Assembly: GCA_964016885.1 (NCBI GenBank)
Contig: OZ024745.1
Location: 84,382,001 to 84,446,000, forward strand
Source: Eledone cirrhosa
Taxonomy: Eukaryota
Direction of reading: 5' to 3'
DNA: 64,000 nt
Part shown: one piece after another, positions 575 through 56,298 of the stretch
Numbering within the stretch: position 1 is the stretch's first letter
How the letters are laid out: each line of letters starts with the position of its first letter
Translations under genes and position numbers: made by a program
Notes under the pieces: model-generated
Databases searched by the model: none
Told to the model about the DNA's origin: nothing
The model's input: only the letters and a program-made list of their open reading frames with translations

Positions 575-576
575 TC

Positions 577-631
577 TGTTAGAACACGAAAAGTGTGAAA
601 CAACAGAATGTTCACTTTTCGTGTTCTAACA
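577..631. repeat. Perfect 19-bp inverted repeat at the left insertion junction
   Basis: tgttagaacacgaaaagtg (577-595) is the reverse complement of cacttttcgtgttctaaca (613-631); 17-nt loop. Confidence 0.9.
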
Positions 632-1169
632 TATATGCGTAGCTTCTTAAAAAATTTTTCGGGGATAGCCGTGGTGGTGGTGATCGTATGTCATTGGCTA
701 ATTTTCAACCAATCAGAGTACCTCTCTCTATATCTCTTCCACTGTTACTTACGCCTGTTTCTCTCTATCTGTTCCGTCTCTATATATATCTCTTACTCTT
801 TCGCTTTGCACTCCTCCCCTTCAATACCATCTCTCCCCCTCTCTATATATTTGTTACTCTATCGCTGCACGCTCCTCTCCTTCAATATATCAATTACACA
901 CGCTTTACACTCCTTTATCCCCAGCGCCCCTATATATACCCCCCCCCATCTCCCGCATCTATATTTTAATGTACCGTTGCACCGTGAATATATGTGTCTA
1001 TATATATATACATATATATTGTATATACACATTCATGTATGTGTATACACACTCATGTATGTATATACACTGGTTTTATGTGTGTATTGTAAATTTGTAC
1101 TGTTAAAACACGAAACTAACATTCGATTGACACTTTGAGTACCTGTACAGGCAATAGTTATTAGAATGC

Positions 1170-1207
1170 TGTTGAAGTGTGTATATATTTTTGGGGGACA
1201 TCCTGTA
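1170..1207 (-). mobile_element. Possible solo Tc1/mariner-type terminal inverted repeat
   Basis: The minus strand reads TA-CAGGATGTCCCCCAAAAATATATACACACTT, resembling TA|CAGGGTGTCCC mariner MITE ends. No partner end was seen. Confidence 0.35.
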
Positions 1208-1567
1208 TATACACACATTATATATAATACAATAAACAGATAAATACACACATATATATATGAGCTTATTTAATTATAAATATTGTGAATTTTTAACTCA
1301 GTTCAATTATATATATAAATGGTTTCTACAGGACTAGAACTGTTTCATTCGAAAGAAATCATCATAATATTGAGAGTGGGGACTAGATAAAATATTTCAA
1401 ATCAAATGTGTATAAGTTATAAGTTAAAATGTATAAATAGAGACGATAGTGGAGGTATATCTGTTTAGTGGAACAGTAGACGATAGAATTAAATACAGAC
1501 GATAATCTCCCTTTAATGAAACAGCAGACGATAGAATTAAGGCAATTTAAATTTTAAGCATTTGCAT

Positions 1568-1620
1568 TTTTGCCTTTCATCGTTACGGGGTCGATAAAAT
1601 AAAGTACCAGTAATACACTG
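1568..1620 (+). mobile_element. SINE fragment (cephalopod-type)
   Basis: tttgcctttcatcgttacggggtcgataaaataaagtaccagtaatacactg shares tcgataaaataaagtaccagtaat with the copy at ~2524-2547. Family recognised from memory only. Confidence 0.55.
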
Positions 1621-1980
1621 TCAATAGACGACTTTCAAATTGAATTGTTGGTTCCATTTCTTTAGTATTTTCAATTGTAGTTATCTACTTAAAAAGCGTT
1701 ACACGGTTAGAGACATAATTCGTAAGTTATATCTTCCCTATTAAACCATTGCATTATTTCGCCTACAATAGAACAAAAATGAAATGTTCTTTAAAGAAAC
1801 AGGAATATAACTTTATAAAAAAAAAAGTTGCATCCGCTTCTTTTATCATTGATAATTTTTTCGTTTTAATATTAATTGTTTTTTGTAGTTGTTTATATTA
1901 AAAATCTTACTGTAATATTTACTTAAACGAAGGCAAACATCTAAACTTATAGATTAATCTTGAGCGAAGGACTAGATAAA

Positions 1981-1989
1981 TCTCTCTCC

Positions 1990-2023
<34 letters not shown>
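1981..2023. repeat. (CT)n(TA)n microsatellite
   Basis: Directly visible. Confidence 0.9.
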
Positions 2024-2024
<1 letters not shown>

Positions 2025-2419
2025 AACGAAGAATGATAAAATTTCAAGCAAAGAGTTTAATTAGGTATATTTTGTAATATTATTAACTAATTATTATAAT
2101 TAACGCGCATATTTTGCTATCCTCAAACACGTTTACACATGGCATGAAATATAACTAATCCGAGATGGCTAGGTTTCATCTTCTAACTGGATATACGAAA
2201 TCCATTATGTCTTGACAACAACATGAGGTAACATTATGTTATTCACAGACACACTTTGTACACTGTTCCATATCAGAATGTATTTCCTTCGTCACATTCA
2301 CAAACAGTATTGAAAATATGTTCTTCGGCAAATAAAAATGTTTTGTTCATAATATTTCAACTAGCGATTGCTCTACTCCACGCACGACCACCATAAATTA
2401 ATGACCAGCTCAACACAAG

Positions 2420-2555
2420 TATTGGTAGAGCGTCAGACACCATGCTTTGCAGTATTGTTATGGTCCTTTGCATTCTAAGTTCAAATCCTGCCGAGGTTAA
2501 CTTCGACTTTCATACTTACTAATTCGATAAAATAAAGTACCAGTAATGGACTGCC
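2420..2555 (+). mobile_element. Decayed tRNA-derived SINE (cephalopod-type)
   Basis: B-box-like gttcaaatcc (~2480-2489) followed by gccgaggttaacttcgactttcat...tcgataaaataaagtaccagt; homologous to 1568-1620. Confidence 0.6.
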
Positions 2556-3141
2556 GTAATGGATTTGTGCCGAAAAATAGAAACACTATTAATGTGCAAT
2601 AAGAGCAAAATATAACGACATTGCTCAATTATTTTATCTAATGTTGTAATAACACAAGGAAATGTTGTTTGTGTATTTTTTTTATATTTGCTCATAGGCT
2701 TTTACAATTTCGCTCAGCCAACAACTATTAAAAAGTGAGTTGCTTAAGATAACAATTTAATCACAAATTGTTGCTATCTTTTAATACACTCCAACAAGTC
2801 ATCAAATTATGTACAATAAAAACAAATCTTATTAATTTGCTCAGGGAATATAAAGAAAATGTATATACACTGATAATTGCAATTGTATGTAAATATTTTG
2901 TTTTTGTATTGTATATTTTATGTTTTCTATTATGTATAATATATTGATTTAATATTGATTGTTTTTTGTAGTTGTTTATATTAAAAGTCTGAAAATATTT
3001 TTATACATCTTACACTAATATTTATAAGATAATTTATAATAACAATTACATAATCTAATTACATTACAACGATAATTTATTATTAATATATATCCTGTTT
3101 AACTAGAGTTATTACAAGCGTTGCCTTAAAAAAATATTAAA

Positions 3142-4096
3142 CTAGACATGAAAAATGCGCAAGCTCAAAAGTGCCACAGAATGTTATAATAAACCTTCAA
3201 AAGTGTGGGACTAGAGTTGTTGCTAAAAAATATTGTAATCATTATATATCGTACATTCTGTGGCATCCTTTATAAAAATAGCTTAAACCAACGAAGCCTT
3301 TATTTTTACGCTATTTCACTTAGTTAATTCTTAGAGTGTAACATATAAAAATAAATACATCTATGTTTAATGTAATAACAGCTATAAATAATTACGTAAT
3401 ATTATTATCATATACTCATAGTAACAAAATAATTGTGTTGAAACTTAATATGATGCTTATATGAACGATCAAATCTATAATGATAATTTCTTAAATATAC
3501 TAATAGTAAAATAATTTAGTTATCTATTGTTACATTTTCATAGAACTATAATATTAACAATCGTATTGCATTATCAAATTTTTATCACTACAAACTTTCA
3601 TATTGGAATTACCTTAAGCCACTTATTATTACTTCGCTTTCGTACTTTTACAGCTGTAGATATTGCGCTGTATCTTATATCTAATATCAATATCTCGTGG
3701 TAATTTGCATGAAGTGTAAAATAGGTTTATTAATAACTTTAATATGAAATGTATTATACAGGGCTGCGGAGTCGGCCAAAAATTGACTGGCTCCAACTCA
3801 GGATCCGATACTCCATTATTTCCTAAATTTCAGCTCCGCAGCTCTGTTATTATATTAATTAATTTATTTTATAGTTGTAAATGATATTTTTATATGTTAC
3901 ACTCTAAGAATTAACTAAGTGAAATAGCGTAAAAATAAAGGCTTCGTTGGTTTAAGCTATTTTTATAAAGGATGCCACAGAATGTACGATATATAATGAT
4001 TACAATATTTTTTAGCAACAACTCTAGTCCCACACTTTTGAAGGTTTATTATAACATTCTGTGGCACATTTGAGCTTGCGCATTTTTCATGTCTAG
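3142..4096. mobile_element. Non-autonomous foldback/TIR element with ~212-bp terminal inverted repeats
   Basis: 3141-3353 is the near-perfect reverse complement of 3885-4097 (one mismatch seen). Termini are CTAG, and TATTAAA flanks both sides (3135-3141, 4097-4103). Confidence 0.8.
3759..3846. mobile_element. 88-bp hAT-like MITE nested in the foldback spacer
   Basis: TIRs cagggctgcggag / ctccgcagctctg (12/13 match); 8-bp flanks gtattata / ttattata (7/8), the TSD length typical of hAT. Confidence 0.7.
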
Positions 4097-4739
4097 TATT
4101 AAATGTTCGGTCAATCCATACGTACATATATATATATGTGTGCATGTATGTATATATATATACATACTACTGTACGTCTATATACATATATGTATGTACG
4201 TATACATACTTATATTTAGGTAACATCCGTAATAAGAGTGGGAAATGAAATTTCGTTTCATTTTTCCGTTTATCGTTTTCGGTACACCCGCCGATTAACC
4301 CACTCGATATGAGAATTGGGCTACTCTGCCGTTAATATGCATAAGGAAAGTATATACTTTCGGACGTTCAATCATCTGGTAGGATGGTATGCTTTGCTGA
4401 CGATAGCTAATAAGCTTGAAACTAGTACAGCGTTCCTTTGTTAGTGTTGAACAAACGAGCCACGGTGGTTGCTAGACACTGCGGCTCAATACGGAATGTT
4501 TGTTTACAAACACAGCGAGTATTATAATAAATGTTCGGTCAATCCATACGTACATATATATATATATATGTGCATGTATGTATATATATATACATACTAC
4601 TATACGTCTGTATACATATATGTATGTACGTATACATACTTATATTTAAGTAACTGCCGTACAAAGAATGGGAAATGAAATTTCGTTTCATTTTTCCGTT
4701 TATCAATTTCGGTGCACTCGGTCGATTAACCCACTTGAT

Positions 4740-4747: not shown

Positions 4748-7375
4748 TGGGCTACTCAGCCGTTAATATGCATAAGGAAAGTATATACTTTCGGACGTTC
4801 AATCATCTGGTAGGATGGTATACTTTGCTGACGATAGCTAATAAGCTTGAAACTAGTACAGCGTTCCTTTGTCAGTGTTGAACAAACGAGCAACGGTGGT
4901 TACTAGACATTGCGGTTTAATACAGGATGTTTGTTTACAAACACAGCGAGCATTATAATAAATGTTCGGTGAATCCATACGTACATATATATATATATGT
5001 GTGCATGTATATATATATATACATACATACTACTGTACGTCTGTATACATATATGTATGTACGTATACATACTTATATTTAAGTAACAGCCGTACTAAGA
5101 GTGGGATATGAATTTTCGTTTCATTTTTCCGTTGTTCGTTTTCGGTGCACTCGGTCGATTAACCCACTTGATAAGCAAATTGGGCTCCTCTGCCGTTAAT
5201 ATGCATGAGGAAAGTATATACTTTCGGACGTTCAATTATCTGGCAGGAAGGTATACGTTGCTGACAAAAGCTAATAAGCTTGAAACTAGTACAGCGTTCC
5301 TTTGTCAGTGTTGAACAAACGAGCAACGGTGGTTTGCTAGACACTACGGTTGAATACGGGATGTTTGTTTACAAACACACCGAGCTTTATAATAAATGTT
5401 CGGTGAATCCATACGTACATATATATATGTGTGCATGTATGTATAAATATATATATATATACATACTACTATACGTCTGTATACATATACATACGTATAC
5501 ATACTTATATTTAAGTAACAGCCGTACTATGAGTGGGAAATGAAATTTCGCTCCATTTTTTCCGTTTATCGTTTTCGGTGTAACCGGCCGATTAACCCAC
5601 TCAATATAAAAATTGGGCTACTCAGCCGTTAATATGCATAAGGAAAGTATATACTTTCAGACGTTCAATCATCTGGCAGGAAAGTATACGTTGCTGACGA
5701 TAGCTAATAAGCTTAAACTAGTACAGCGTTCCTTTGTCAGTGTTGAACAAACGAGCAACGGTGGGTTGTTGGACACTACGGCTTAATACGGAAAGTTGGT
5801 TTACAAACACGCCGAGCATTATAATAAATGTTCGGTGAATCCATAGGTACATATATATATATGTGTGCATGTATGTATATATATATATATATATACTACT
5901 GTACGTCTGTATACATATATGTAGCTACATATGCATACTTCTATTTAAGTAACAGCCGTACTAAGAGTGGGAAATGAAATTTAGTTTAATTTTTTCAGTT
6001 TATCGTTTTCGGTGCACCCGGCCGATTAACCCACTCGATATGCAGATTAGGCTACTCAGCCATTAATATGCATAAGCAAACTATATACTTTCGGACGTTC
6101 AATCATCTGGCAGGAAGGTATAGCTTGTTGACGATAGCTAATAAGCTTGAAACTAGTACAGCGTTCCTTTGTCAGTGTTGAACAAACGAGCAACGGTGGT
6201 TTGCTAGACACTACAGCTTAATACGTGATGTTTGTTTACAAACACACCGAGCTTTATAATAAATGTTCGGTGAATCCATACGTACATATATATATATGTG
6301 TGCATTTATGTATATATACATACATACTACTGTACGTCTGTATACATATATGTATGTACGTATACATAATTTAAGTAACAGCCGTACTAAGAGTGGGAAA
6401 TGAAATTTAGTTTAATTTTTTCAGTTTATCGTTTTCGGTGAACCCGGCCGATTAACCCACTCGATATGCAAATTAGGCTACTCAACCGTTAATATGCATA
6501 AGGAAACTACATACTTTCGGACGTTCAATCATCTGCCAGGAAGGTATACGTTGCTGACGATAGGTATTAAGCTTGAAACTAGTACAGCGTTCCTTTGTCA
6601 GTGTTGAACAAACGAGCAACGGTGGTTGCTAGACACTACGGCTTAATACGGGATGTTTGTTTAAAAACACACAGAGAATTATAATAAATGTTCGGTGAAT
6701 CCATACGTACACATATATATGTGTGCATGTATGTATATATATATACATACTACTGTGCGTCTGTATACATATATGTATGTACGTATACATACTTATATTT
6801 AAGTAACAGCCGTACTAAGAGTGGGAAATGAAATTTCGTTTCTTTTTTCCGTTTATCGTTTTCGGTGCACTCGGTCGATTAACCCACTTGATATGCAAAT
6901 TAGGCTACTCAACCGTTAATATGCATAAGGAACTATATGCTTTCGGATGTTCAATCATCTGGCAGGGTGGTATACGTTGCTGACGATAGCTAATAACCTT
7001 GAAACTAGTACAGCGTTCCTTTGTCAGTGTTGAACAAACGAGCAACGGTGGTTGCTAGACACTAGGGCTTAATACGGGATGTTTCTTTACAAACACACCG
7101 TGCATTATAATAAATGCTTGGTGAATCCATACGTACATATATATATGTGTGCATGTATGTATATATATATACATACTACTGTACGTCTGTATACATATAT
7201 GTTTGTATCTATACATACTTATATTTAAGTAGCAGCCGTACTAAGCGTGGGAAATGAAATTTCGTTTCTTTTTTCCGTTTATCGTTTTCGGTGCACTCGG
7301 TCGATTAACCCACTTGATATGCAAATTAGGCTACTCAACCGTTAATATGCATAGGGAAAGTATATACTTTCGGAC

Positions 7376-7462
7376 GTTCAATCATCTGGCAGGAAGGTAT
7401 AGGTTGCTGACGATAGCTAATAAGCTAGAAACTAGTACAGCCTTCCTTTGTCAGTGTTGAAC
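7376..7462 (+). ncRNA. Full-length type I hammerhead ribozyme, well-paired example
   Basis: Distal stem I GTTCAA/TTGAAC and CTGGCA/TGTCAG; internal loop AGGTAT; proximal stem AGGTTG/CAGCCT; CTGACGA 7407-7413; TAGC-TAATAA-GCTA; GAAA 7428-7431; predicted cleavage after GTA at 7437. Confidence 0.87.
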
Positions 7463-10400
7463 AAACGAGCAACGGTGGTTTGCTAGACACTACAGCTTAA
7501 TACGGGATGTTTGTTTACAAACACACCGAGCTTTATAATAAATGTTCGGTGAATCCATACGTACATATATATATATATATGTGCATGTATGTATATATAC
7601 ATACATACTACTGTACGCCTGTATACATATATGTATGTACGTATACATACTTATATTTAAGTAACAGGCGTACAAAGAGTGGGAAATGAAATTTCGTTAC
7701 ATTTTTCCTTTTATCGTTTTCAGTGCAACCGGCCGATTAAGCCACTCGATATGCAAATTGGGCTACTCTGCCGTTAGTATGCATAAGGAAAGTATATACT
7801 TTCGGACGTTCAATTATCTGGCAGGAAGGTATACGTTGCTGACGATAGCTAATAAGCTAGAAACTAGTACAGCGTTCCTTTGTCAGTGTTGAACAAACGA
7901 GCAACGGTGGTTGCTAGACACTACGGCTTAATACGGGATGTTTGTTTAAAAACACACAGAGAATTATAATAAATGTTCGGTGAATCCATACGTACACATA
8001 TATATGTGTGCATGTATGTATATATATATACATACTACTGTGCGTCTGTATACATATATGTATGTAGGTATACATACTTATATTTAAGTAACAGCCGTAC
8101 TAAGAGTGGGAAATGAAATTTCGTTTCTTTTTTAGTTTATCGTTTTCGGTGCACGCGGTCGATTAACCCACTTGATATGCAAATTGGGTTACTCAGCCGT
8201 TAATATGCATAAGGAAAGTATATACATTCGGACGTTCAATCATCTGGCAGGAAGGTATAGCTTGTTGACGATAGCTAATAAGCTTGAAATTAGTACAGCG
8301 TTCCTTTGTCAGTGTTGAACAAACGAGCAACGGTGGTTTGCTAGACACTACAGCTTAATACGTGATGTTTGTTTACAAACACACCGAGCTTTATAATAAA
8401 TGTTCGGTGAATCCATACGTACATATATATATATGTGTGCATTTATGTATATATACATACATACTACTGTACGTCTGTATACATATATGTATGTACGTAT
8501 ACATAATTATATTTAAGTAACAGCCGTACTAAGAGTGGGAAATGAAATTTAGTTTAATTTTTTCAGTTTATCGTTTTCGGTGAACCCGGCCGATTAACCC
8601 ACTCGATATGCAAATTAGGCTACTCAACCGTTAATATGCATAAGGAAACTATATACTTTCGGACGTTCAATCATCTGCCAGGAAGGTATACGTTGCTGAC
8701 GATAGGTATTAAGCTTGAAACTAGTACAGCGTTCCTTTGTCAGTGTTGAACAAACGAGCAACGGTGGTTGCTAGACACTACGGCTTAATACGGGATGTTT
8801 GTTTAAAAACACACAGAGAATTATAATAAATGTTCGGTGAATCCAAACGTACACATATATATGTGTGCATGTATGTATATATATATACATACTACTGTGC
8901 GTCTGTATACATATATGTATGTACGTATACATACTTATATTTAAGTAACAGCCGTACTAAGAGTGGGAAATGAAATTTCGTTTCTTTTTTCCGTTTATCG
9001 TTTTCGGTGCACTCGGTCGATTAACCCACTTGATATGCAAATTAGGCTACTCAACCGTTAATATGCATAAGGAACTATATGCTTTCGGACGTTCAATCAT
9101 CTGGCAGGATGGTATACGTTGCTGACGATAGCTAATAAGCTTGAAACTAGTACAGCGTTCCTTTGTCAGTGTTGAACAAACGAGCAACGGTGGTTGCTAG
9201 ACACTAGGGCTTAATACGGGATGTTTCTTTACAAACACACCGTGCATTATAATAAATGCTTGGTGAATCCATACGTACATATATATATGTGTGCATGTAT
9301 GTATATATATATACATACTACTGTACGTCTGTATACATATATGTTTGTATCTATACATACTTATATTTAAGTAGCAGCCGTACTAAGCGTGGGAAATGAA
9401 ATTTCGTTTCTTTTTTCCGTTTATCGTTTTCGGTGCACTCGGTCGATTAACCCACTTGATATGCAAATTAGGCTACTCAACCGTTAATATGCATAGGGAA
9501 AGTATATACTTTCGGACGTTCAATCATCTGGCAGGAAGGTATAGGTTGCTGACGATAGCTAATAAGCTAGAAACTAGTACAGCCTTCCTTTGTCAGTGTT
9601 GAACAAACGAGCAACGGTGGTTGCTAGACACTGCAGCTTAATACGGGATGTTTGTTTACAAACACACCGAGCATTATAATAAATGTTCGGTCAATCCATA
9701 CGTACATATATATATATGTGTGCATGTATGTATATATATATACATACTACTGTACGTCTGTATACATATATGTATGTACGTATGCATACTTAAATTTAAG
9801 TAACAGCCGTACAAAGAATAGGAAATGAAATTTCATTTCATTTTTCCGTTCATCGTTCTCGGCACACCCGCCGATTAACCCATTCGATATGCAAACTTGG
9901 CTAACCTGCCGTTAATACTCATAAGGAAAGTATATACTTTCGGACGTTCAATCATCTGGCAGGATGGTATACGTTGCTGACGATAGCTAATAAGCTTGAA
10001 ACTAGTACAGCGTTCCTTTGTCAGTGTTGAACAAACGAGCAACGGTGGTTGCTAGATACTCTCGGCTTAATACGGGATGTCTGTTTACAAACACAGCGAG
10101 CATGATAATAAATGTTCGGTCAATCCATACGTACATATATATATATGTGTGCATGTATGTATATATATATATACATCCTATTGTACGTCTGTATACATAT
10201 ATGTATGTACGTATACATACTTATATTTAAGTAACAGCCGTACAAAGAATGGGAAATGAAATTTCGTTTCATTTATCCGTTTAGCGTTTTCAGTACACCC
10301 GCCGATTAACCCACTCGATATGCAAATTGGGCTACTCTGCCGTTAATATGCATAAGGAAAGTATATACTTTCGGACGTTCAATCATCTGGCAGGATGGTA

Positions 10401-13400: not shown

Positions 13401-15359
13401 AAGGTATACGTTGCTGACGATAGGTATTAAGCTTGAAACTAGTACAGCGTTCCTTTGTCAGTGTTGAACAAACGAGCAACGGTGGTTGCTAGACACTACG
13501 GCTTAATACGGGATGTTTGTTTAAAAACACACAGAGAATTATAATAAATGTTCGGTGAATCCATACGTACACATATATATGTGTGCATGTATGTATATAT
13601 ATATACATACTACTGTGCGTCTGTATACATATATGTATGTACGTATACATACTTATATTTAAGTAACAGCCGTACTAAGAGTGGGAAATGAAATTTCGTT
13701 TCTTTTTTCCGTTTATCGTTTTCGGTGCACTCGGTCGATTAACCCACTTGATATGCAAATTAGGCTACTCAACCGTTAATATGCATAAGGAACTATATGC
13801 TTTCGGATGTTCAATCATCTGGCAGGGTGGTATACGTTGCTGACGATAGCTAATAACCTTGAAACTAGTACAGCGTTCCTTTGTCAGTGTTGAACAAACG
13901 AGCAACGGTGGTTGCTAGACACTAGGGCTTAATACGGGATGTTTCTTTACAAACACACCGTGCATTATAATAAATGCTTGGTGAATCCATACGTACATAT
14001 ATATATGTGTGCATGTATGTATATATATATACATACTACTGTACGTCTGTATACATATATGTTTGTATCTATACATACTTATATTTAAGTAGCAGCCGTA
14101 CTAAGCGTGGGAAATGAAATTTCGTTTCTTTTTTCCGTTTATCGTTTTCGGTGCACTCGGTCGATTAACCCACTTGATATGCAAATTAGGCTACTCAACC
14201 GTTAATATGCATAGGGAAAGTATATACTTTCGGACGTTCAATCATCTGGCAGGAAGGTATAGGTTGCTGACAATAGCTAATAAGCTAGAAACTAGTACAG
14301 CCTTCCTTTGTCAGTGTTGAACAAACGAGCAACGGTGGTTTGCTAGACACTACAGCTTAATACGGGATGTTTGTTTACAAACACACCGAGCTTTATAATA
14401 AATGTTCGGTGAATCCATACGTACATATATATATATATGTGCATGTATGTATATATACATACATACTACTGTACGTCTGTATACATATATGTATGTACGT
14501 ATACATACTTATATTTAAGTAACAGGCGTACAAAGAGTGGGAAATGAAATTTCGTTACATTTTTCCTTTTATCGTTTTCAGTGCAACCGGCCGATTAAGC
14601 CACTCGATATGCAAATTGGGCTACTCTGCCGTTAGTATGCATAAGGAAAGTATATACTTTCGGACGTTCAATTATCTGGCAGGAAGGTATACGTTGCTGA
14701 CGATAGCTAATAAGCTTGAAACTAGTACAGCGTTCCTTTGTCAGTGTTGAACATACGAGCAACGGTGGTTGCTAGACACTACGGCGTAATACGGGATGTC
14801 TGTTTACAAACACACCGAGAATTATAATAAATGTTCGGTCAATCCATACGTACATATATATATATGTGTGCATGTATGTATATATATATACATACTACTG
14901 TACGTCTATATACATATATGTATGTACGTATACATACTTATATTTAGGTAACATCCGTAATAAGTGTGGGAAATGAAATTTCGTTTCATTTTTCCGTTTA
15001 TCGTTTTCGGTACACCCGCCGATTAACCCACTCGATATGCAAATTGGGCTACTCTGCCGTTAATATGCATAAGGAAAGTATATACTTTCGGACGTTCAAT
15101 CATCTGGCAGGATGGTATATGTTGCTGACGATAGCTAATAAGCTAGAAACTAGTACAGCGTTCCTTTGTCAGTGTTGAACAAACGAGCAACGGTGGTTGC
15201 TAGACACTACGGCTTAATACGGGATGTTTGTTTAAAAACACACAGAGAATTATAATAAATGTTCGGTGAATCCATACGTACACATATATATGTGTGCATG
15301 TATGTATATATATATACATACTACTGTGCGTCTGTATACATATATGTATGTACGTATAC

Positions 15360-18300
15360 ATACTTATATTTAAGTAACAGCCGTACTAAGAGTGGGAAAT
15401 GAAATTTCGTTTCTTTTTTAGTTTATCGTTTTCGGTGCACGCGGTCGATTAACCCACTTGATATGCAAATTGGGTTACTCAGCCGTTAATATGCATAAGG
15501 AAAGTATATACATTCGGACGTTCAATCATCTGGCAGGAAGGTATAGCTTGTTGACGATAGCTAATATGCTTGAAATTAGTACAGCGTTCCTTTGTCAGTG
15601 TTGAACAAACGAGCAACGGTGGTTTGCTAGACACTACAGCTTAATACGTGATGTTTGTTTACAAACACACCGAGCTTTATAATAAATGTTCGGTGAATCC
15701 ATACGTACATATATATATATGTGTGCATTTATGTATATATACATACATACTACTGTACGTCTGTATACATATATGTATGTACGTATATATAATTATATTT
15801 AAGTAACAGCCGTACTAAGAGTGGGAAATGAAATTTAGTTTAATTTTTTCAGTTTATCGTTTTCGGTGAACCCGGCCGATTAACCCACTCGATATGCAAA
15901 TTAGGCTACTCAACCGTTAATATGCATAAGGAAACTATATACTTTCGGACGTTCAATCATCTGCCAGGAAGGTATACGTTGCTGACGATAGGTATTAAGC
16001 TTGAAACTAGTACAGCGTTCCTTTGTCAGTGTTGAACAAACGAGCAACGGTGGTTGCTAGACACTACGGCTTAATACGGGATGTTTGTTTAAAAACACAC
16101 AGAGAATTATAATAAATGTTCGGTGAATCCAAACGTACACATATATATGTGTGCATGTATGTATATATATATACATACTACTGTGCGTCTGTATACATAT
16201 ATGTATGTACGTATACATACTTATATTTAAGTAACAGCCGTACTAAGAGTGGGAAATGAAATTTCGTTTCTTTTTTCCGTTTATCGTTTTCGGTGCACTC
16301 GGTCGATTAACCCACTTGATATGCAAATTAGGCTACTCAACCGTTAATATGCATAAGGAACTATATGCTTTCGGACGTTCAATCATCTGGCAGGATGGTA
16401 TACGTTGCTGACGATAGCTAATAAGCTTGAAACTAGTACAGCGTTCCTTTGTCAGTGTTGAACAAACGAGCAACGGTGGTTGCTAGACACTAGGGCTTAA
16501 TACGGGATGTTTCTTTACAAACACACCGTGCATTATAATAAATGCTTGGTGAATCCATACGTACATATATATATGTGTGCATGTATGTATATATATATAC
16601 ATACTACTGTACGTCTGTATACATATATGTTTGCATCTATACATACTTATATTTAAGTAGCAGCCGTACTAAGCGTGGGAAATGAAATTTCGTTTCTTTT
16701 TTCCGTTTATCGTTTTCGGTGCACTCGGTCGATTAACCCACTTGATATGCAAATTAGGCTACTCAACCGTTAATATGCATAGGGAAAGTATATACTTTCG
16801 GACGTTCAATCATCTGGCAGGAAGGTATAGGTTGCTGACGATAGCTAATAAGCTAGAAACTAGTACAGCCTTCCTTTGTCAGTGTTGAACAAACGAGCAA
16901 CGGTGGTTTGCTAGACACTACGGCGTAATACGGGATGTCTGTTTACAAACACATTGAGAATTATAATAAATGTTCGGTCAATCCATACGTACATATATAT
17001 ATATATGTGCATGTATGTATATATATATACATACTACTGTACGTCTATATACATATATGTATGTACGTATACATACTTATAGTTAGGTAACATCCGTAAT
17101 AAGAGTGGGAAATGAAATTTCGTTTCATTTTTCCGTTTATCGTTTTCGGTACACCCGCCGATTAACCCACTCGATATGCAAATTGGGCTACTCTGCCGTT
17201 AATATGCATAAGGAAAGTATATACTTTCGGACGTTCAATCATCTGGCAGGATGGTATATGTTGCTGACGATAGCTAATAAGCTAGAAACTAGTACAGCGT
17301 TCCTTTGTCAGTGTTGAACAAACGAGCAACGGTGGTTGCTAGACACTGCAGCTTAATACGGGATGTTTGTTTACAAACACACCGAGCATTATAATAAATG
17401 TTCGGTCAATCCATACGTACATATATATATATGTGTGCATGTATGTATATATATATACATACTACTGTACGTCTGTATACATATATGTATGTACGTATAC
17501 ATACTTAAATTTAAGTAACAGCCGTACAAAGAATAGGAAATGAAATTTCATTTCATTTTTCCGTTCATCGTTCTCGGCACACCCGCCGATTAACCCATTC
17601 GATATGCAAACTTGGCTAACCTGCCGTTAATACTCATAAGGAAAGTATATACTTTCGGACGTTCAATCATCTGGCAGGATGGTATACGTTGCTGACGATA
17701 GCTAATAAGCTTGAAACTAGTACAGCGTTCCTTTGTCAGTGTTGAACAAACGAGCAACGGTGGTTGCTAGATACTCTCGGCTTAATACGGGATGTCTGTT
17801 TACAAACACAGCGAGCATGATAATAAATGTTCGGTCAATCCATACGTACATATATATATATGTGTGCATGTATGTATATATATATATACATCCTATTGTA
17901 CGTCTGTATACATATATGTATGTACGTATACATACTTATATTTAAGTAACAGCCGTACAAAGAATGGGAAATGAAATTTCGTTTCATTTATCCGTTTAGC
18001 GTTTTCAGTACACCCGCCGATTAACCCACTCGATATGCAAATTGGGCTACTCTGCCGTTAATATGCATAAGGAAAGTATATACTTTCGGACGTTCAATCA
18101 TCTGGCAGGATGGTATATGTTGCTGACGATAGCTAATAAGCTAGAAACTAGTACAGCGTTCCTTTGTCAGTGTTGAACAAACGAGCAACGGTGGTTGCTA
18201 GACACTGCAGCTTAATACGGGATGTTTGTTTACAAACACAGCGAGCATTATAATAAATGTTCGGTCAATCCATACGTACATATATATATATGTGTGCATG

Positions 18301-21300
18301 TATGTATATATATATACATACTACTGTACGTCTGTATACATATATGTATGTACGTATACATACTTATATTTAAGTAACAGCCGTACAAAGATTGGGAAAT
18401 GAAATTTCGTTTCATTTTTCTGTTCATCGTTTTCGGTGCACTCGGTAGATTAATCAATTGATATGCAAATTGGGTTACTCTGCCGTTAATATGCAGAAGG
18501 AAACTATATACTTTCGGACGTTCAATCATCTGGCAGGAAGGTATAGGTTGCTGACGATAGCTAATAAGCTTGAAACTAGTACAGCGTTCCTTTGTCAGTG
18601 TTGAACAAACGAGCAACGGTGGTTTGCTAGATTCTACGGCTTAATACGGGATGTTTGTTTACAAACACACCGAGCTTTGTAATAAATGTTCGGTGAATCC
18701 ATACGTACATTTATATTTATGTGCATGTCTGTATATATATATACATACTACTGTACGTCTGTATACATTTATGTATGTACGTATACATACTTATATTTAA
18801 GTAACAGCCGTACTAAGAGTGGGATATGAAATTTCGTTTCATTTTTCCGTTTATAGTTTTCGGTGCACTAGGTCGATTAACCCACTTGATATGCAAATTG
18901 GGCTAGTCAGCCGTTAATATGCATAAGGACAGTATATACTTTCGGACGTTCAATCATCTGGCAGGATGGTATACGTTGCTGACGATAGCTAATAAGCTTG
19001 AAATTAGTACCGCGTTCCTTTGTCAGTGTTGAACAAACGAGCAACGGTGGTTGTTAGACACTGCGGCTTAATACGGGATGTTTGTTTACAAACACAGCGA
19101 GCATTATAATAAATGTTCGGTCAATCCATACGTACATATATATATATGTGTGCATGTATGTATATATATATACATACCAATGTGCGTCTGTATACATATA
19201 TGTATGTACGTATAAATAATTATATTTAAGTAACAGCCGTACTAAGAGTGGGAAATGAAATTTCGTTTCATTTTTCTGTTTATCGTTTTCAGTGCACCCG
19301 GCCGATTAACCCATTCGATATGCAAATTGGACTACTCAGCCGTTAATATGCATAAGGAAAGTATATACTTTCGGACGTTCAATCATCTGGCAGGAAAGTA
19401 TAGCTTGTTGACGATAGCTAATAAGCTTGAAACTAGTACAGCGTTCCTTTGTCAGTGTTGAACAAACGAGCAACGGTGGTTTGCTAGACACTACAGCTTA
19501 ATACGTGATATTTGTTTACAAACACACCGAGCTTTATAATAAATGTTCGGTGAATCCATACGTACATATATATATTTGTGTGCATTTATGTATATATACA
19601 TACATACTACTGTACGTCTGTATACATATATGTATGTACGTATACATAATTATATTTAAGTAACAGCCGTACTAAGAGTGGGAAATGAAATTTAGTTTAA
19701 TTTTTTCAGTTTATCGTTTTCGGTGAACCCGGCCGATTAACCCACTCGATATGCAAATTAGGCTACTCAACCGTTAATATGCATAAGGAAACTATATACT
19801 TTCGGACGTTCAATCATCTGCCAGGAAGGTATACGTTGCTGACAATAGGTATTAAGCTTGAAACTCGTACAGCGTTCCTTTGTCAGTTTTGAACAAACGA
19901 GCAACGGTGGTTGCTAGACACTACGGCTTAATACGGGATGTTTGTTTAAAAACACACAGAGAATTATAATAAATGTTCGGTGAATCCATACGTACACATA
20001 TATATGTGTGCATGTATGTATATATATATACATACTACTGTGCGTCTGTATACATATATGTATGTACGTATACATACTTATATTTAAGTAACAGCCGTAC
20101 TAAGAGTGGGAAATGAAATTTCGTTTCTTTTTTCCGTTTATCGTTTTCGGTGCACTCGGTCGATTAACCCACTTGATATGCAAATTAGGCTACTCAACCG
20201 TTAATATGCATAAGGAACTATATGCTTTCGGACGTTCAATCATCTGGCAGGATGGTATACGTTGCTGACGATAGCTAATAAGCTTGAAACTAGTACAGCG
20301 TTCCTTTGTCAGTGTTGAACAAACGAGCAACGGTGGTTTGTTAGACACTACAGCGTAATACGGGATGTTTGTTTACAAACACACCGAGCTTTATAATAAA
20401 TGTTCGGTGAATCCATACGTACATATATATATATGTGTGCATTTATGTATATATACATACATACTACTGTACGTCTGTATACATATATGTATGTACGTAT
20501 ACATACTTATATTTAAGTAACAGCCGTACTAAGAGTGGGAAATGAAATTTCGTTTCTTTTTTAGTTTATCGTTTTCGGTGCACGCGGTCGATTAACCCAC
20601 TTGATATGCAAATTGGGTTACTCAGCCGTTAATATGCATAAGGAAAGTATATACATTCGGACGTTCAATCATCTGGCAGGAAGGTATAGCTTGTTGACGA
20701 TAGCTAATATGCTTGAAATTAGTACAGCGTTCCTTTGTCAGTGTTGAACAAACGAGCAACGGTGGTTTGCTAGACACTACAGCTTAATACGTGATGTTTG
20801 TTTACAAACACACCGAGCTTTATAATAAATGTTCGGTGAATCCATACGTACATATATATATATGTGTGCATTTATGTATATATACATACATACTACTGTA
20901 CGTCTGTATACATATATGTATGTACGTATATATAATTATATTTAAGTAACAGCCGTACTAAGAGTGGGAAATGAAATTTAGTTTAATTTTTTCAGTTTAT
21001 CGTTTTCGGTGAACCCGGCCGATTAACCCACTCGATATGCAAATTAGGCTACTCAACCGTTAATATGCATAAGGAAACTATATACTTTCGGACGTTCAAT
21101 CATCTGCCAGGAAGGTATACGTTGCTGACGATAGGTATTAAGCTTGAAACTAGTACAGCGTTCCTTTGTCAGTGTTGAACAAACGAGCAACGGTGGTTGC
21201 TAGACACTACGGCTTAATACGGGATGTTTGTTTAAAAACACACAGAGAATTATAATAAATGTTCGGTGAATCCAAACGTACACATATATATGTGTGCATG

Positions 21301-24300
21301 TATGTATATATATATACATACTACTGTGCGTCTGTATACATATATGTATGTACGTATACATACTTATATTTAAGTAACAGCCGTACTAAGAGTGGGAAAT
21401 GAAATTTCGTTTCTTTTTTCCGTTTATCGTTTTCGGTGCACTCGGTCGATTAACCCACTTGATATGCAAATTAGGCTACTCAACCGTTAATATGCATAAG
21501 GAACTATATGCTTTCGGACGTTCAATCATCTGGCAGGATGGTATACGTTGCTGACGATAGCTAATAAGCTTGAAACTAGTACAGCGTTCCTTTGTCAGTG
21601 TTGAACAAACGAGCAACGGTGGTTGCTAGACACTAGGGCTTAATACGGGATGTTTCTTTACAAACACACCGTGCATTATAATAAATGCTTGGTGAATCCA
21701 TACGTACATATATATATGTGTGCATGTATGTATATATATATACATACTACTGTACGTCTGTATACATATATGTTTGTATCTATACATACTTATATTTAAG
21801 TAGCAGCCGTACTAAGCGTGGGAAATGAAATTTCGTTTCTTTTTTCCGTTTATCGTTTTCGGTGCACTCGGTCGATTAACCCACTTGATATGCAAATTAG
21901 GCTACTCAACCGTTAATATGCATAGGGAAAGTATATACTTTCGGACGTTCAATCATCTGGCAGGAAGGTATAGGTTGCTGACGATAGCTAATAAGCTAGA
22001 AACTAGTACAGCCTTCCTTTGTCAGTGTTGAACAAACGAGCAACGGTGGTTTGCTAGACACTACGGCGTAATACGGGATGTCTGTTTACAAACACATTGA
22101 GAATTATAATAAATGTTCGGTCAATCCATACGTACATATATATATATATGTGCATGTATGTATATATATATACATACTACTGTACGTCTATATACATATA
22201 TGTATGTACGTATACATACTTATATTTAGGTAACATCCGTAATAAGAGTGGGAAATGAAATTTCGTTTCATTTTTCCGTTTATCGTTTTCGGTACACCCG
22301 CCGATTAACCCACTCGATATGCAAATTGGGCTACTCTGCCGTTAATATGCATAAGGAAAGTATATACTTTCGGACGTTCAATCATCTGGCAGGATGGTAT
22401 ATGTTGCTGACGATAGCTAATAAGCTAGAAACTAGTACAGCGTTCCTTTGTCAGTGTTGAACAAACGAGCAACGGTGGTTGCTAGACACTGCAGCTTAAT
22501 ACGGGATGTTTGTTTACAAACACACCGAGCATTATAATAAATGTTCGGTCAATCCATACGTACATATATATATATGTGTGCATGTATGTATATATATATA
22601 CATACTACTGTACGTCTGTATACATATATGTATGTACGTATACATACTTAAATTTAAGTAACAGCCGTACAAAGAATAGGAAATGAAATTTCATTTCATT
22701 TTTCCGTTCATCGTTCTCGGCACACCCGCCGATTAACCCATTCGATATGCAAACTTGGCTAACCTGCCGTTAATACTCATAAGGAAAGTATATACTTTCG
22801 GACGTTCAATCATCTGGCAGGATGGTATACGTTGCTGACGATAGCTAATAAGCTTGAAACTAGTACAGCGTTCCTTTGTCAGTGTTGAACAAACGAGCAA
22901 CGGTGGTTGCTAGATACTCTCGGCTTAATACGGGATGTCTGTTTACAAACACAGCGAGCATGATAATAAATGTTCGGTCAATCCATACGTACATATATAT
23001 ATATGTGTGCATGTATGTATATATATATATACATCCTATTGTACGTCTGTATACATATATGTATGTACGTATACATACTTATATTTAAGTAACAGCCGTA
23101 CAAAGAATGGGAAATGAAATTTCGTTTCATTTATCCGTTTAGCGTTTTCAGTACACCCGCCGATTAACCCACTCGATATGCAAATTGGGCTACTCTGCCG
23201 TTAATATGCATAAGGAAAGTATATACTTTCGGACGTTCAATCATCTGGCAGGATGGTATATGTTGCTGACGATAGCTAATAAGCTAGAAACTAGTACAGC
23301 GTTCCTTTGTCAGTGTTGAACAAACGAGCAACGGTGGTTGCTAGACACTGCAGCTTAATACGGGATGTTTGTTTACAAACACAGCGAGCATTATAATAAA
23401 TGTTCGGTCAATCCATACGTACATATATATATATGTGTGCATGTATGTATATATATATACATACTACTGTACGTCTGTATACATATATGTATGTACGTAT
23501 ACATACTTATATTTAAGTAACAGCCGTACAAAGATTGGGAAATGAAATTTCGTTTCATTTTTCTGTTCATCGTTTTCGGTGCACTCGGTAGATTAATCAA
23601 TTGATATGCAAATTGGGTTACTCAGCCGTTAATATGCAGAAGGAAACTATATACTTTCGGACGTTCAATCATCTGGCAGGAAGGTATAGGTTGCTGACGA
23701 TAGCTAATAAGCTTGAAACTAGTACAGCGTTCCTTTGTCAGTGTTGAACAAACGAGCAACGGTGGTTTGCTAGATTCTACGGCTTAATACGGGATGTTTG
23801 TTTACAAACACACCGAGCTTTGTAATAAATGTTCGGTGAATCCATACGTACATTTATATTTATGTGCATGTCTGTATATATATATACATACTACTGTACG
23901 TCTGTATACATTTATGTATGTACGTATACATACTTATATTTAAGTAACAGCCGTACTAAGAGTGGGATATGAAATTTCGTTTCATTTTTCCGTTTATAGT
24001 TTTCGGTGCACTAGGTCGATTAACCCACTTGATATGCAAATTGGGCTAGTCAGCCGTTAATATGCATAAGGACAGTATATACTTTCGGACGTTCAATCAT
24101 CTGGCAGGATGGTATACGTTGCTGACGATAGCTAATAAGCTTGAAATTAGTACCGCGTTCCTTTGTCAGTGTTGAACAAACGAGCAACGGTGGTTGTTAG
24201 ACACTGCGGCTTAATACGGGATGTTTGTTTACAAACACAGCGAGCATTATAATAAATGTTCGGTCAATCCATACGTACATATATATATATGTGTGCATGT

Positions 24301-27300
24301 ATGTATATATATATACATACCAATGTGCGTCTGTATACATATATGTATGTACGTATAAATAATTATATTTAAGTAACAGCCGTACTAAGAGTGGGAAATG
24401 AAATTTCGTTTCATTTTTCTGTTTATCGTTTTCAGTGCACCCGGCCGATTAACCCATTCGATATGCAAATTGGACTACTCAGCCGTTAATATGCATAAGG
24501 AAAGTATATACTTTCGGACGTTCAATCATCTGGCAGGAAAGTATAGCTTGTTGACGATAGCTAATAAGCTTGAAACTAGTACAGCGTTCCTTTGTCAGTG
24601 TTGAACAAACGAGCAACGGTGGTTTGCTAGACACTACAGCTTAATACGTGATATTTGTTTACAAACACACCGAGCTTTATAATAAATGTTCGGTGAATCC
24701 ATACGTACATATATATATTTGTGTGCATTTATGTATATATACATACATACTACTGTACGTCTGTATACATATATGTATGTACGTATACATTATTATATTT
24801 AAGTAACAGCCGTACTAAGAGTGGGAAATGAAATTTAGTTTAATTTTTTCAGTTTATCGTTTTCGGTGAACCCGGCCGATTAACCCACTCGATATGCAAA
24901 TTAGGCTACTCAACCGTTAATATGCATAAGGAAACTATATACTTTCGGACGTTCAATCATCTGCCAGGAAGGTATACGTTGCTGACAATAGGTATTAAGC
25001 TTGAAACTCGTACAGCGTTCCTTTGTCAGTTTTGAACAAACGAGCAACGGTGGTTGCTAGACACTACGGCTTAATACGGGATGTTTGTTTAAAAACACAC
25101 AGAGAATTATAATAAATGTTCGGTGAATCCATACGTACACATATATATGTGTGCATGTATGTATATATATATACATACTACTGTGCGTCTGTATACATAT
25201 ATGTATGTACGTATACATACTTATATTTAAGTAACAGCCGTACTAAGAGTGGGAAATGAAATTTCGTTTCTTTTTTCCGTTTATCGTTTTCGGTGCACTC
25301 GGTCGATTAACCCACTTGATATGCAAATTAGGCTACTCAACCGTTAATATGCATAAGGAACTATATGCTTTCGGACGTTCAATCATCTGGCAGGATGGTA
25401 TACGTTGCAGACGATAGCTAATAAGCTTGAAACTAGTACAGCGTTCCTTTGTCAGTGTTGAACAAACGAGCAACGGTGGTTTGTTAGACACTACAGCGTA
25501 ATACGGGATGTTTGTTTACAAACACACCGAGCTTTATAATAAATGTTCGGTGAATCCATACGTACATATATATATATGTGTGCATTTATGTATATATACA
25601 TACATACTACTGTACGTCTGTATACATATATGTATGTACGTATACATACTTATATTTAAGTAACAGCCGTACTAAGAGTGGGAAATGAAATTTCGTTTCT
25701 TTTTTAGTTTATCGTTTTCGGTGCACGCGGTCGATTAACCCACTTGATATGCAAATTGGGTTACTCAGCCGTTAATATGCATAAGGAAAGTATATACATT
25801 CGGACGTTCAATCATCTGGCAGGAAGGTATAGCTTGTTGACGATAGCTAATATGCTTGAAATTAGTACAGCGTTCCTTTGTCAGTGTTGAACAAACGAGC
25901 AACGGTGGTTTGCTAGACACTACAGCTTAATACGTGATGTTTGTTTACAAACACACCGAGCTTTATAATAAATGTTCGGTGAATCCATACGTACATATAT
26001 ATATATGTGTGCATTTATGTATATATACATACATACTACTGTACGTCTGTATACATATATGTATGTACGTATATATAATTATATTTAAGTAACAGCCGTA
26101 CTAAGATTGGGAAATGAAATTTAGTTTAATTTTTTCAGTTTATCGTTTTCGGTGAACCCGGCCGATTAACCCACTCGATATGCAAATTAGGCTACTCAAC
26201 CGTTAATATGCATAAGGAAACTATATACTTTCGGACGTTCAATCATCTGCCAGGAAGGTATACGTTGCTGACGATAGGTATTAAGCTTGAAACTAGTACA
26301 GCGTTCCTTTGTCAGTGTTGAACAAACGAGCAACGGTGGTTGCTAGACACTACGGCTTAATACGGGATGTTTGTTTAAAAACACACAGAGAATTATAATA
26401 AATGTTCGGTGAATCCAAACGTACACATATATATGTGTGCATGTATGTATATATATATACATACTACTGTGCGTCTGTATACATATATGTATGTACGTAT
26501 ACATACTTATATTTAAGTAACAGCCGTACTAAGAGTGGGAAATGAAATTTCGTTTCTTTTTTCCGTTTATCGTTTTCGGTGCACTCGGTCGATTAACCCA
26601 CTTGATATGCAAATTAGGCTACTCAACCGTTAATATGCATAAGGAACTATATGCTTTCGGACGTTCAATCATCTGGCAGGATGGTATACGTTGCTGACGA
26701 TAGCTAATAAGCTTGAAACTAGTACAGCGTTCCTTTGTCAGTGTTGAACAAACGAGCAACGGTGGTTGCTAGACACTAGGGCTTAATACGGGATGTTTCT
26801 TTACAAACACACCGTGCATTATAATAAATGCTTGGTGAATCCATACGTACATATATATATGTGTGCATGTATGTATATATATATACATACTACTGTACGT
26901 CTGTATACATATATGTTTGTATCTATACATACTTATATTTAAGTAGCAGCCGTACTAAGCGTGGGAAATGAAATTTCGTTTCTTTTTTCCGTTTATCGTT
27001 TTCGGTGCACTCGGTCGATTAACCCACTTGATATGCAAATTAGGCTACTCAACCGTTAATATGCATAGGGAAAGTATATACTTTCGGACGTTCAATCATC
27101 TGGCAGGAAGGTATAGGTTGCTGACGATAGCTAATAAGCTAGAAACTAGTACAGCCTTCCTTTGTCAGTGTTGAACAAACGAGCAACGGTGGTTTGCTAG
27201 ACACTACGGCGTAATACGGGATGTCTGTTTACAAACACATTGAGAATTATAATAAATGTTCGGTCAATCCATACGTACATATATATATATATGTGCATGT

Positions 27301-30300
27301 ATGTATATATATATACATACTACTGTACGTCTATATACATATATGTATGTACGTATACATACTTATATTTAGGTAACATCCGTAATAAGAGTGGGAAATG
27401 AAATTTCGTTTCATTTTTCCGTTTATCGTTTTCGGTACACCCGCCGATTAACCCACTCGATATGCAAATTGGGCTACTCTGCCGTTAATATGCATAAGGA
27501 AAGTATATACTTTCGGACGTTCAATCATCTGGCAGGATGGTATATGTTGCTGACGATAGCTAATAAGCTAGAAACTAGTACAGCGTTCCTTTGTCAGTGT
27601 TGAACAAACGAGCAACGGTGGTTGCTAGACACTGCAGCTTAATACGGGATGTTTGTTTACAAACACACCGAGCATTATAATAAATGTTCGGTCAATCCAT
27701 ACGTACATATATATATATGTGTGCATGTATGTATATATATATACATACTACTGTACGTCTGTATACATATATGTATGTACGTATACATACTTAAATTTAA
27801 GTAACAGCCGTACAAAGAATAGGAAATGAAATTTCATTTCATTTTTCCGTTCATCGTTCTCGGCACACCCGCCGATTAACCCATTCGATATGCAAACTTG
27901 GCTAACCTGCCGTTAATACTCATAAGGAAAGTATATACTTTCGGACGTTCAATCATCTGGCAGGATGGTATACGTTGCTGACGATAGCTAATAAGCTTGA
28001 AACTAGTACAGCGTTCCTTTGTCAGTGTTGAACAAACGAGCAACGGTGGTTGCTAGATACTCTCGGCTTAATACGGGATGTCTGTTTACAAACACAGCGA
28101 GCATGATAATAAATGTTCGGTCAATCCATACGTACATATATATATATGTGTGCATGTATGTATATATATATATACATCCTATTGTACGTCTGTATACATA
28201 TATGTATGTACGTATACATACTTATATTTAAGTAACAGCCGTACAAAGAATGGGAAATGAAATTTCGTTTCATTTATCCGTTTAGCGTTTTCAGTACACC
28301 CGCCGATTAACCCACTCGATATGCAAATTGGGCTACTCTGCCGTTAATATGCATAAGGAAAGTATATACTTTCGGACGTTCAATCATCTGGCAGGATGGT
28401 ATATGTTGCTGACGATAGCTAATAAGCTAGAAACTAGTACAGCGTTCCTTTGTCAGTGTTGAACAAACGAGCAACGGTGGTTGCTAGACACTGCAGCTTA
28501 ATACGGGATGTTTGTTTACAAACACAGCGAGCATTATAATAAATGTTCGGTCAATCCATACGTACATATATATATATGTGTGCATGTATGTATATATATA
28601 TACATACTACTGTACGTCTGTATACATATATGTATGTACGTATACATACTTATATTTAAGTAACAGCCGTACAAAGATTGGGAAATGAAATTTCGTTTCA
28701 TTTTTCTGTTCATCGTTTTCGGTGCACTCGGTAGATTAATCAATTGATATGCAAATTGGGTTACTCAGCCGTTAATATGCAGAAGGAAACTATATACTTT
28801 CGGACGTTCAATCATCTGGCAGGAAGGTATAGGTTGCTGACGATAGCTAATAAGCTTGAAACTAGTACAGCGTTCCTTTGTCAGTGTTGAACAAACGAGC
28901 AACGGTGGTTTGCTAGATTCTACGGCTTAATACGGGATGTTTGTTTACAAACACACCGAGCTTTGTAATAAATGTTCGGTGAATCCATACGTACATTTAT
29001 ATTTATGTGCATGTCTGTATATATATATACATACTACTGTACGTCTGTATACATTTATGTATGTACGTATACATACTTATATTTAAGTAACAGCCGTACT
29101 AAGAGTGGGATATGAAATTTCGTTTCATTTTTCCGTTTATAGTTTTCGGTGCACTAGGTCGATTAACCCACTTGATATGCAAATTGGGCTAGTCAGCCGT
29201 TAATATGCATAAGGAAAGTATATACTTTCGGACGTTCAATCATCTGGCAGGAAAGTATAGCTTGTTGACGATAGCTAATAAGCTTGAAACTAGTACAGCG
29301 TTCCTTTGTCAGTGTTGAACAAACGAGCAACGGTGGTTTGCTAGACACTACAGCTTAATACGTGATATTTGTTTACAAACACACCGAGCTTTATAATAAA
29401 TGTTCGGTGAATCCATACGTACATATATATATTTGTGTGCATTTATGTATATATACATACATACTACTGTACGTCTGTATACATATATGTATGTACGTAT
29501 ACATAATTATATTTAAGTAACAGCCGTACTAAGAGTGGGAAATGAAATTTAGTTTAATTTTTTCAGTTTATCGTTTTCGGTGAACCCGGCCGATTAACCC
29601 ACTCGATATGCAAATTAGGCTACTCAACCGTTAATATGCATAAGGAAACTATATACTTTCGGACGTTCAATCATCTGCCAGGAAGGTATACGTTGCTGAC
29701 AATAGGTATTAAGCTTGAAACTCGTACAGCGTTCCTTTGTCAGTTTTGAACAAACGAGCAACGGTGGTTGCTAGACACTACGGCTTAATACGGGATGTTT
29801 GTTTAAAAACACACAGAGAATTATAATAAATGTTCGGTGAATCCATACGTACACATATATATGTGTGCATGTATGTATATATATATACATACTACTGTGC
29901 GTCTGTATACATATATGTATGTACGTATACATACTTATATTTAAGTAACAGCCGTACTAAGAGTGGGAAATGAAATTTCGTTTCTTTTTTCCGTTTATCG
30001 TTTTCGGTGCACTCGGTCGATTAACCCACTTGATATGCAAATTAGGCTACTCAACCGTTAATATGCATAAGGAACTATATGCTTTCGGACGTTCAATCAT
30101 CTGGCAGGATGGTATACGTTGCTGACGATAGCTAATAAGCTTGAAACTAGTACAGCGTTCCTTTGTCAGTGTTGAACAAACGAGCAACGGTGGTTTGTTA
30201 GACACTACAGCGTAATACGGGATGTTTGTTTACAAACACACCGAGCTTTATAATAAATGTTCGGTGAATCCATACGTACATATATATATATGTGTGCATT

Positions 30301-51400: not shown

Positions 51401-51510
51401 TTCATTTTACCGTTTATCGTTTTCGGTGCACTCGGTCGATTACCCCACTTGATATGCAAATTGGGCTACTCAGCCGTTAATATGCATAAGGAAACTATAT
51501 ACTTTCGGAC

Positions 51511-51597
51511 GTTCAATCATCTGGCAGGATGGTATACGTTGCTGACGATAGCTAATAAGCTTGAAACTAGTACAGCGTTCTTTTGTCAGTGTTGAAC
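51511..51597 (+). ncRNA. Last hammerhead copy of the array
   Basis: ACGTTG-CTGACGA(51542-51548)-TAGCTAATAAGCTT-GAAA-CTAGTA|CAGCGT; predicted cleavage after 51572. Confidence 0.8.
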
Positions 51598-51780: not shown

Positions 51781-51972
<192 letters not shown>

Positions 51973-56256: not shown

Positions 56257-56298
56257 GTTGGTGGAGAAGAGTTGGCGAAAAAGGACGAAAAGGTGCAC

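Follow-up and report, generated by a model that had tools for sequence, protein, structure and literature searches.

A hammerhead-bearing repeat of Eledone cirrhosa with Penelope-type insertion structure, and the single origin of a paired stem change in its tandem array

Tandem array and surroundings

The window analysed here, a stretch of 64,000 nucleotides from Eledone cirrhosa, is largely occupied by a plus-strand tandem array whose 428-bp unit (GC 38%) contains one type I hammerhead. The main part of the array (4100-51788) holds about 111 units (111.3 copies, 91% matches). The tail of its upstream part lies at 1-575 on the same strand and extends about 8.5 kb before the window, where an inverted piece is present at the far end. 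Within the window, 113 hammerhead cores are found on the plus strand and none on the minus strand. A 12-unit higher-order repeat occupies 16539-28968, with corresponding units differing by 0-1 letters. At its 3′ side the array stops at unit position ~117 and is followed by (TA)n (51673-51973), an end shared with dispersed insertions of the same unit. Each unit also contains, at unit positions 20-120 (for example 7545-7655), a self-complementary, palindromic TA/CA-rich tract of 100 nt that stops at the first insertion end and is possibly a start or target signal for reverse transcription.

A 3.5-kb insertion at 576-4099 interrupts the array. Inside it are an inverted repeat of 223 nt (3131-3353 with 3885-4107, 98%) and, twice, a short SINE-like repeat (1569-1620 and 2502-2553) that may resemble an octopus SINE. 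To the right of the array lie two broken LINE-like elements on the minus strand, one with RVT_1 and Exo_endo_phos domains (53883-56089) and one with RVT_1 and zf-RVT (58843-61179), as well as GT-rich low-complexity tracts at 56700-57000 and 62300-63700. A search for tRNA genes found none.

Hammerhead anatomy

In its main form, the hammerhead of the unit consists of stem I ACGTTG/CAGCGT, the core CTGACGA, a four-pair stem II resting on a U.U apposition, GAAA, a palindromic ACTAGT stem III and a GUA cut site. The copy on which this study centres is a variant of that form. Its stem I 5′ arm (7401-7406) has C>G at 7402 and is followed by the core residues C3-A9 (CUGACGA, 7407-7413) and by stem II with a 4-nt loop (7414-7427), in which the A at 7427 makes a U-A pair where the family has U.U. 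GAAA and the ACUAGU stem III come next (7428-7437, palindrome 7431-7436), with cleavage predicted after A7437, and then the stem I 3′ arm (7438-7443) with G>C at 7442. The complete ribozyme, including an outer extension of stem I, spans 7386-7455, all on the plus strand.

This arrangement is that of a type I hammerhead, CUGANGA ... GAAA ... UH around three stems with stem I open. The canonical metazoan form has a helix I of 6 bp, a helix II of about 4 bp and a short palindromic helix III, and is active as a dimer (PMC4209133); here helix I has 6 bp, helix II has 4 bp plus U.U, and helix III is the ACUAGU palindrome, which requires either a dimer or one pair plus a tetraloop. The G10.1-C11.1 closing pair is absent from families A and B (U.U), group C has C.A or C-G at this position, and in the 466-bp families stem II is closed by G-C. 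The axolotl offers parallels for both features, as HHR_Amex2 is likewise reported with U.U at the base of stem II and HHR_Amex1 with a palindromic stem III tetraloop (PMC7229834).

Rfam hammerhead models give no match at gathering score in the window, and among the 48 Rfam matches at E≤10 in 7300-8000 there is no hammerhead; low-score microRNA matches fall on the TA-rich tract and were rejected as chance. Because Rfam does not recognise the motif, the hammerhead assignment rests on its anatomy and on covariation between families. Circular folding of one unit gives z = -3.4 against 40 shuffles, a value not counted as support since the unit contains the self-complementary TA/CA tract.

Distribution and origin of the double change

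A sequence-only reading of the window had proposed that the hammerhead stems vary in a compensatory manner among monomers. Its central example, AGGTTG/CAGCCT accompanied by GCTA, is present as described at 11-53, 7401-7443, 9543-9585 and 16829-16871. Further copies at 14261-14303, 21972-22014, 27115-27157 and 30546-30588 bring the total to 8 of 113 units, all on the plus strand. The unit at 11-53 is identical to that at 7401; the copies at 16829, 21972 and 27115 sit in the 12-unit higher-order repeat at a spacing of 5143 bp; and the eighth copy, at 30546, has recombinant flanks. The stem I variants CAACGT (37009 and 37867) and ACGCTG (47687) also exist. The proposed intermediate AGGTTG/CAGCGT at 10830 is real as a variant, but it lies on a different haplotype. 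Likewise, GCTA does close stem II with U-A in the double copies, but 15 of the 23 units with GCTA lack the double change.

That these variants are more than chance is not confirmed, and the examples were selective: a stem I pair is broken in 31 of the 113 units. A core base is changed in 29 of 113. Among the 24 units with the 5′-arm C>G, the partner change is found in only 8 and is missing in 16, and the 3′ change alone occurs in no array copy. Changes at A9 and A13 harm the hammerhead; two of the supporting examples carry them, the CAACGT copy at 36972-37014 (A13>G) and the ACGCTG copy at 47687-47729 (A9>G). The double-change copy at 14261 has a core change of its own, G8>A, and a Penelope hammerhead that loses G8 no longer cleaves (PMC11167929).

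When 132 units (113 in the window and 19 upstream) are placed in a tree, the eight doubles form one clade together with two single-change relatives; all eight doubles share ten derived letters between unit positions 161 and 334. The two relatives, at 31541 and at window position -5007, possess C>G, GCTA and the private 246G and lack G>C, which therefore arose last and once. A genome-wide pattern search allowing at most one mismatch returned 10 matches, all in this array (the eight doubles and their two relatives); the search covers doubles on this loop II background, those on the alternative one being two mismatches away. By comparison, hammerheads of the family within three mismatches of the main form number 19,116 on both strands of the genome (control 0). 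In dispersed units each of the two changes is also found alone (2 and 2 of 124). Contigs derived from reads, drawn from three runs of one sample that is possibly the source of the assembly, show the main form at the flagged letters 7402 and 7442 in more than 99% of depth in one run, where depth is not copy number. The double change is one event multiplied by higher-order duplication.

A separate lineage of 12 of the 132 units (6122-6164 and 11 others) combines an adjacent CG>GC swap in stem I with C3>U; its ribozyme is broken and has reached more copies than the flagged one.

Mutation rates and predicted folding

The claim that the stems are selected within the array is not supported by rates, since changes in stem I and the core are as frequent as those in other parts of the unit. 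Compared with sites of matching base and CpG context outside the ribozyme, the 132 units show 15 distinct alleles in stem I (13.6 expected), 7 in stem II (9.0) and 12 in the core (11.5), while parsimony counts are 32 (27.6), 13 (18.5) and 20 (23.2), respectively, with no P below 0.2. Stem alleles keep pairing in 6 cases and break it in 16, for a neutral expectation of 5.3 and 17.4. Outside the ribozyme, apparent double changes affect 10-12% of complementary position pairs of G-C type. The probability of at least one chance double among the nine Watson-Crick stem pairs is 0.46, or 0.39-0.42 when duplicates are collapsed to 45-70 representatives; that of finding one in at least 8 copies is 0.04, at a threshold set post hoc.

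Once duplicates are collapsed, changes in stem II fall below expectation at three thresholds (P 0.03-0.04, uncorrected and for one of four classes), and the values for stem I (0.43-0.71), the core (0.19-0.33) and all 35 sites (0.08-0.15) are higher. Forty-two hand-listed distinct array haplotypes lie slightly above shuffles (16-22 of 500), with three double-sided cells, two of which are the flagged event and the third a single change at U.U. Intact ribozymes are found in 51 of 132 units, and 81 have a change in the core or stem III or a broken pair. The alleles common in the array are mostly rare in dispersed copies (22 of 27 occur in at most 4 of ~66), which places their spread within the array. 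Another large array built from this unit (C1:51.77-51.79 Mb, 50 full units) contains 15 alleles where 14.8 are expected, and its ribozyme decay also looks unselected. One chance mutation copied along DNA explains the flagged pair, and selection within the array is not supported.

According to folding with a secondary-structure model that ignores tertiary contacts, the double change should mispair stem I instead of restoring the helix. For the outer four pairs of stem I the predicted pair probability is about 0.9 in the main form and falls to 0.08 in the single and double variants alike. The G>C at 7442 makes 7441-7447 a perfect 7-bp partner of 7391-7397 in a competing register; in the model, it is this rival pairing of the new C with the upstream AGGAAGG that keeps stem I of the double variant unrestored.

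Dispersed copies and insertion structure

Outside arrays, the unit occurs at dispersed loci, 68 of which were analysed as bare tandem pieces of the unit; open reading frames were surveyed for 51000-64000. An inverted part is present at 36 of the 68 loci, and at 62 an arm stops close to unit position 119 or 174. Counted by arm, 84 of 97 ends fall at these two sites, 35 near 119 and 49 near 174. The ends of dispersed insertions often lie within simple repeats, and insertions of five to nine units also exist in the genome. When the region 3′ of the ribozyme served as anchor for a DNA search, the matches were mostly array copies. Penelope-like insertions are recognised by partial tandems, a 5′-truncated copy in inverted orientation and a tail (10.1101/2021.04.23.441226); this tail spans the interval separating two internal sites at which reverse transcription starts (PMC11167929). 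The present array has the same 3′ end as the dispersed insertions and an inverted far end.

The insertions cross the cut site of the ribozyme, and the template would therefore be a circle or an uncut multimer; in an anole study, uncut RNA was the main substrate in vitro (PMC11167929). At 67 dispersed loci the core (P 0.009-0.015) and stem II (P 0.02-0.04) vary less than matched sites, and stem I does not; at 33 loci chosen without reference to the ribozyme, reduced variation persists in the core alone (P 0.02-0.04). The sequence evidence supports a repeat family that would move through RNA.

No autonomous Penelope-like element with the unit as terminal repeat was found in 40 loci (30 GIY-YIG and 10 long-frame) examined from 10,597 GIY-YIG candidates in the genome, 150 of which were scored. 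Three of five long frames tested combine RT and GIY-YIG. Hammerheads at the 40 scanned loci differ from that of the unit. At one locus (L120) a unit copy lies about 1 kb from the candidate and is likely a separate insertion. The two LINE-like frames to the right of the array were also rejected as partners, being of AP-endonuclease rather than GIY-YIG type and outside the ends of the insertion. At L125:2151, L194, L195 and L198, a different short hammerhead with a CTGAAGA core and a GTAC palindrome lies about 400 nt 3′ of RT and GIY-YIG frames; it is the terminal-repeat ribozyme of one Penelope-like family.

Covariation between families

Comparison of genome-wide families gives a different picture from the array. 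Subfamily B, which is dispersed, has A-U in place of the stem I U.G of the main family A and gives 1,737 matches at one mismatch or fewer; all 100 listed matches carry both changes, in a search by which single-sided forms are uncountable. A and B (28 loci) are separated by 32 fixed differences. Of the 257 sites outside the ribozyme 26 differ, and inside its 43 nt the differences are confined to the two stem I partners and one loop II site. Members of subfamily B, which number at least 1,737 and include L175-L190 (C1:2821128 onward), diverge by about 10% outside the stem I double change. In the ribozyme region, 3 of 72 sites are fixed for a change (omitting loop II position 313, which is variable within A), not significantly fewer than the 26 of 257 elsewhere (P 0.08).

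A pattern of core and stem III that excludes the main family yields 11,342 more matches (control 6), including the close group C and families with units of 466-469 bp. The latter, found at C1:5738327-5752443 and L202-L250, have ATATTG/CAATAT stems and a stem II of GTTGT/ACAAC or GATGT/ACATC, and they share with group C the tandem-plus-inversion layout of the main family. In 14 copies from six groups, stem I is paired throughout (100%), 96% of all cells are paired, and 7 of 12 pairs have changed on both sides. The covariation score of these 14 copies is 0.54, compared with 0.20 in shuffled sets (0 of 500) and no more than 0.15 after sliding, for hand-picked related rows, a test that is not tree-aware and a core and stem III fixed by the search pattern. 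The reads-derived contigs agree: within 7401-7443, variants exceeding 5% across the family fall, in one run, at the paired positions 7404 (A 22%, G 11%) and 7440 (T 28%), at the loop II position 7421 and at the cut-site base 7437.

The earlier suggestion of an RNA stage with a selected ribozyme is supported at the family level, by insertion structure and by double-sided changes between families, and not within the array. Judged from sequence comparison, these findings support selection on RNA that would act in source lineages, while this array decays.

Origin of the array

On the anatomy and copy numbers observed, together with the single origin, the equal rates, the structure of insertions and the covariation between families, the repeat is very probably a non-LTR retrozyme, a non-autonomous Penelope-like repeat that inserted here and then grew by DNA duplication, with the flagged pair a chance change copied eight times. 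Source copies would be transcribed, and the hammerhead would cut the RNA into units, probably as a dimer via the palindromic stem III. Cut units may circularise, as retrozyme units of coral, mussel and axolotl do (PMC7229834). A putative Penelope-like reverse transcriptase acting in trans would start at unit positions ~119 or ~174 and insert one to several units, often with the 5′ part inverted. The ribozyme would be selected only at the RNA and insertion stage, leading to stems that covary between families. The locus itself would have begun as one insertion, which DNA duplication and conversion expanded to ~135 units whose ribozymes now appear to decay at background rate; unequal crossover is a model for the local expansion of such repeats (10.64898/2026.07.22.740005). 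Within the array, C>G and U>A probably came first and G>C once later, followed by eightfold copying.

It is improbable that the array is instead under selection for working ribozymes, through host use or as an active source of RNA, with the G-C swap kept as a restorer of stem I. The double change is real, present in eight copies and without any 3′ change on its own, the probability of a chance double reaching so many copies is low, stem II is nominally low after collapsing, and 51 units are still intact; in crickets, moreover, satellite hammerheads are conserved across species (PMC2837043). Against these points stand the single origin of the change, the background rate of stem I and the core, and the 81 altered or mispaired units. 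In addition, the 12-copy lineage has both C3>U and a broken stem, stem I pairing is predicted to drop rather than recover in the double variant, and the genome search with at most one mismatch found no dispersed daughter of that variant. Slightly less credible still is a templated G>C, in which a strand switch at the DNA level within an imperfect inverted repeat would produce a compensatory look without selection or RNA. The change does perfect the 7-bp inverted repeat (7391-7397 with 7441-7447) and also fits the mutated 5′ arm, but the same G>C occurs without its partner in 2 of 124 dispersed units, the adjacent wobble was left uncorrected, and chance alone suffices.

A very unlikely origin, the least favoured of those considered, is the writing of the whole array by one rolling-circle reverse transcription, such that variants among units would reflect an RNA population. 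The 3′ end and inverted 5′ piece resemble those of dispersed insertions, the insertions of five to nine units show that multi-unit copies exist elsewhere, and 45-57 deep lineages are left after collapsing. RNA-borne variants should spare the core, however, and the array variants do not. Near-identical higher-order repeats and array-private alleles in up to half of the units also require DNA-level copying after insertion, as proposed in the retrozyme account favoured above.

Relation to known elements and significance

By the features tested, except for an Rfam match and the G-C closing pair, the repeat is a non-LTR retrozyme with Penelope-type ends. The non-LTR retrozymes of mussel, coral and axolotl are low-GC, non-coding tandem units with one type I hammerhead each, present in thousands of copies and in many-unit arrays (Cervera and de la Pena 2020, PMC7229834). 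The present unit falls, with its 428 bp and GC of 38%, within their range of about 150-450 bp and low GC, and the 19,116 hammerhead matches provide the many dispersed copies besides arrays. Its sequence is unrelated to those retrozymes in a comparison by Rfam only, and it differs from them by the 100-nt TA/CA-rich palindromic tract.

Resemblance to non-autonomous Penelope-like elements and pLTR derivatives lies in the partial tandems, the inverted 5′-truncated copies, the two alternative 3′ ends, the neighbourhood of AT-rich or microsatellite sequence and the local array expansion (Li, Clavereau, Pollet 2026, 10.64898/2026.07.22.740005; Craig et al. 2021; Frangieh et al. 2024, PMC11167929). 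Unlike in Penelope-like elements, the tail here is ~55 nt instead of 30-40 nt, and the unit appears to lack an open frame.

Compensatory changes in a hammerhead satellite are already known from crickets: the pDo500 satellite of Dolichopoda has an embedded type I hammerhead with reported changes of this kind in stems I and II (PMC2837043). The pDo500 hammerhead is conserved beyond the rest of its repeat across species, whereas such conservation appears here only between dispersed families and not in the array. Literature searches found no description of such repeats in cephalopods, and the supplements of PMC7229834 and 10.64898/2026.07.22.740005 may list the family.

On balance, the evidence leans towards an animal retrozyme without a coding frame that enters new sites by reverse transcription of Penelope type, started at two fixed internal sites and continuing across the cut site. 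Its related hammerheads, numbering over 30,000 and falling into six or more groups, would separate RNA selection in source lineages from neutral decay in arrays. If this is true, within-array 'compensatory' changes in hammerhead satellites need a copy-aware null. The very large family and its clear Penelope insertion signature would make the proposed partnership of retrozyme and Penelope testable in one genome, and the same genome would allow testing whether transposition needs the hammerhead.
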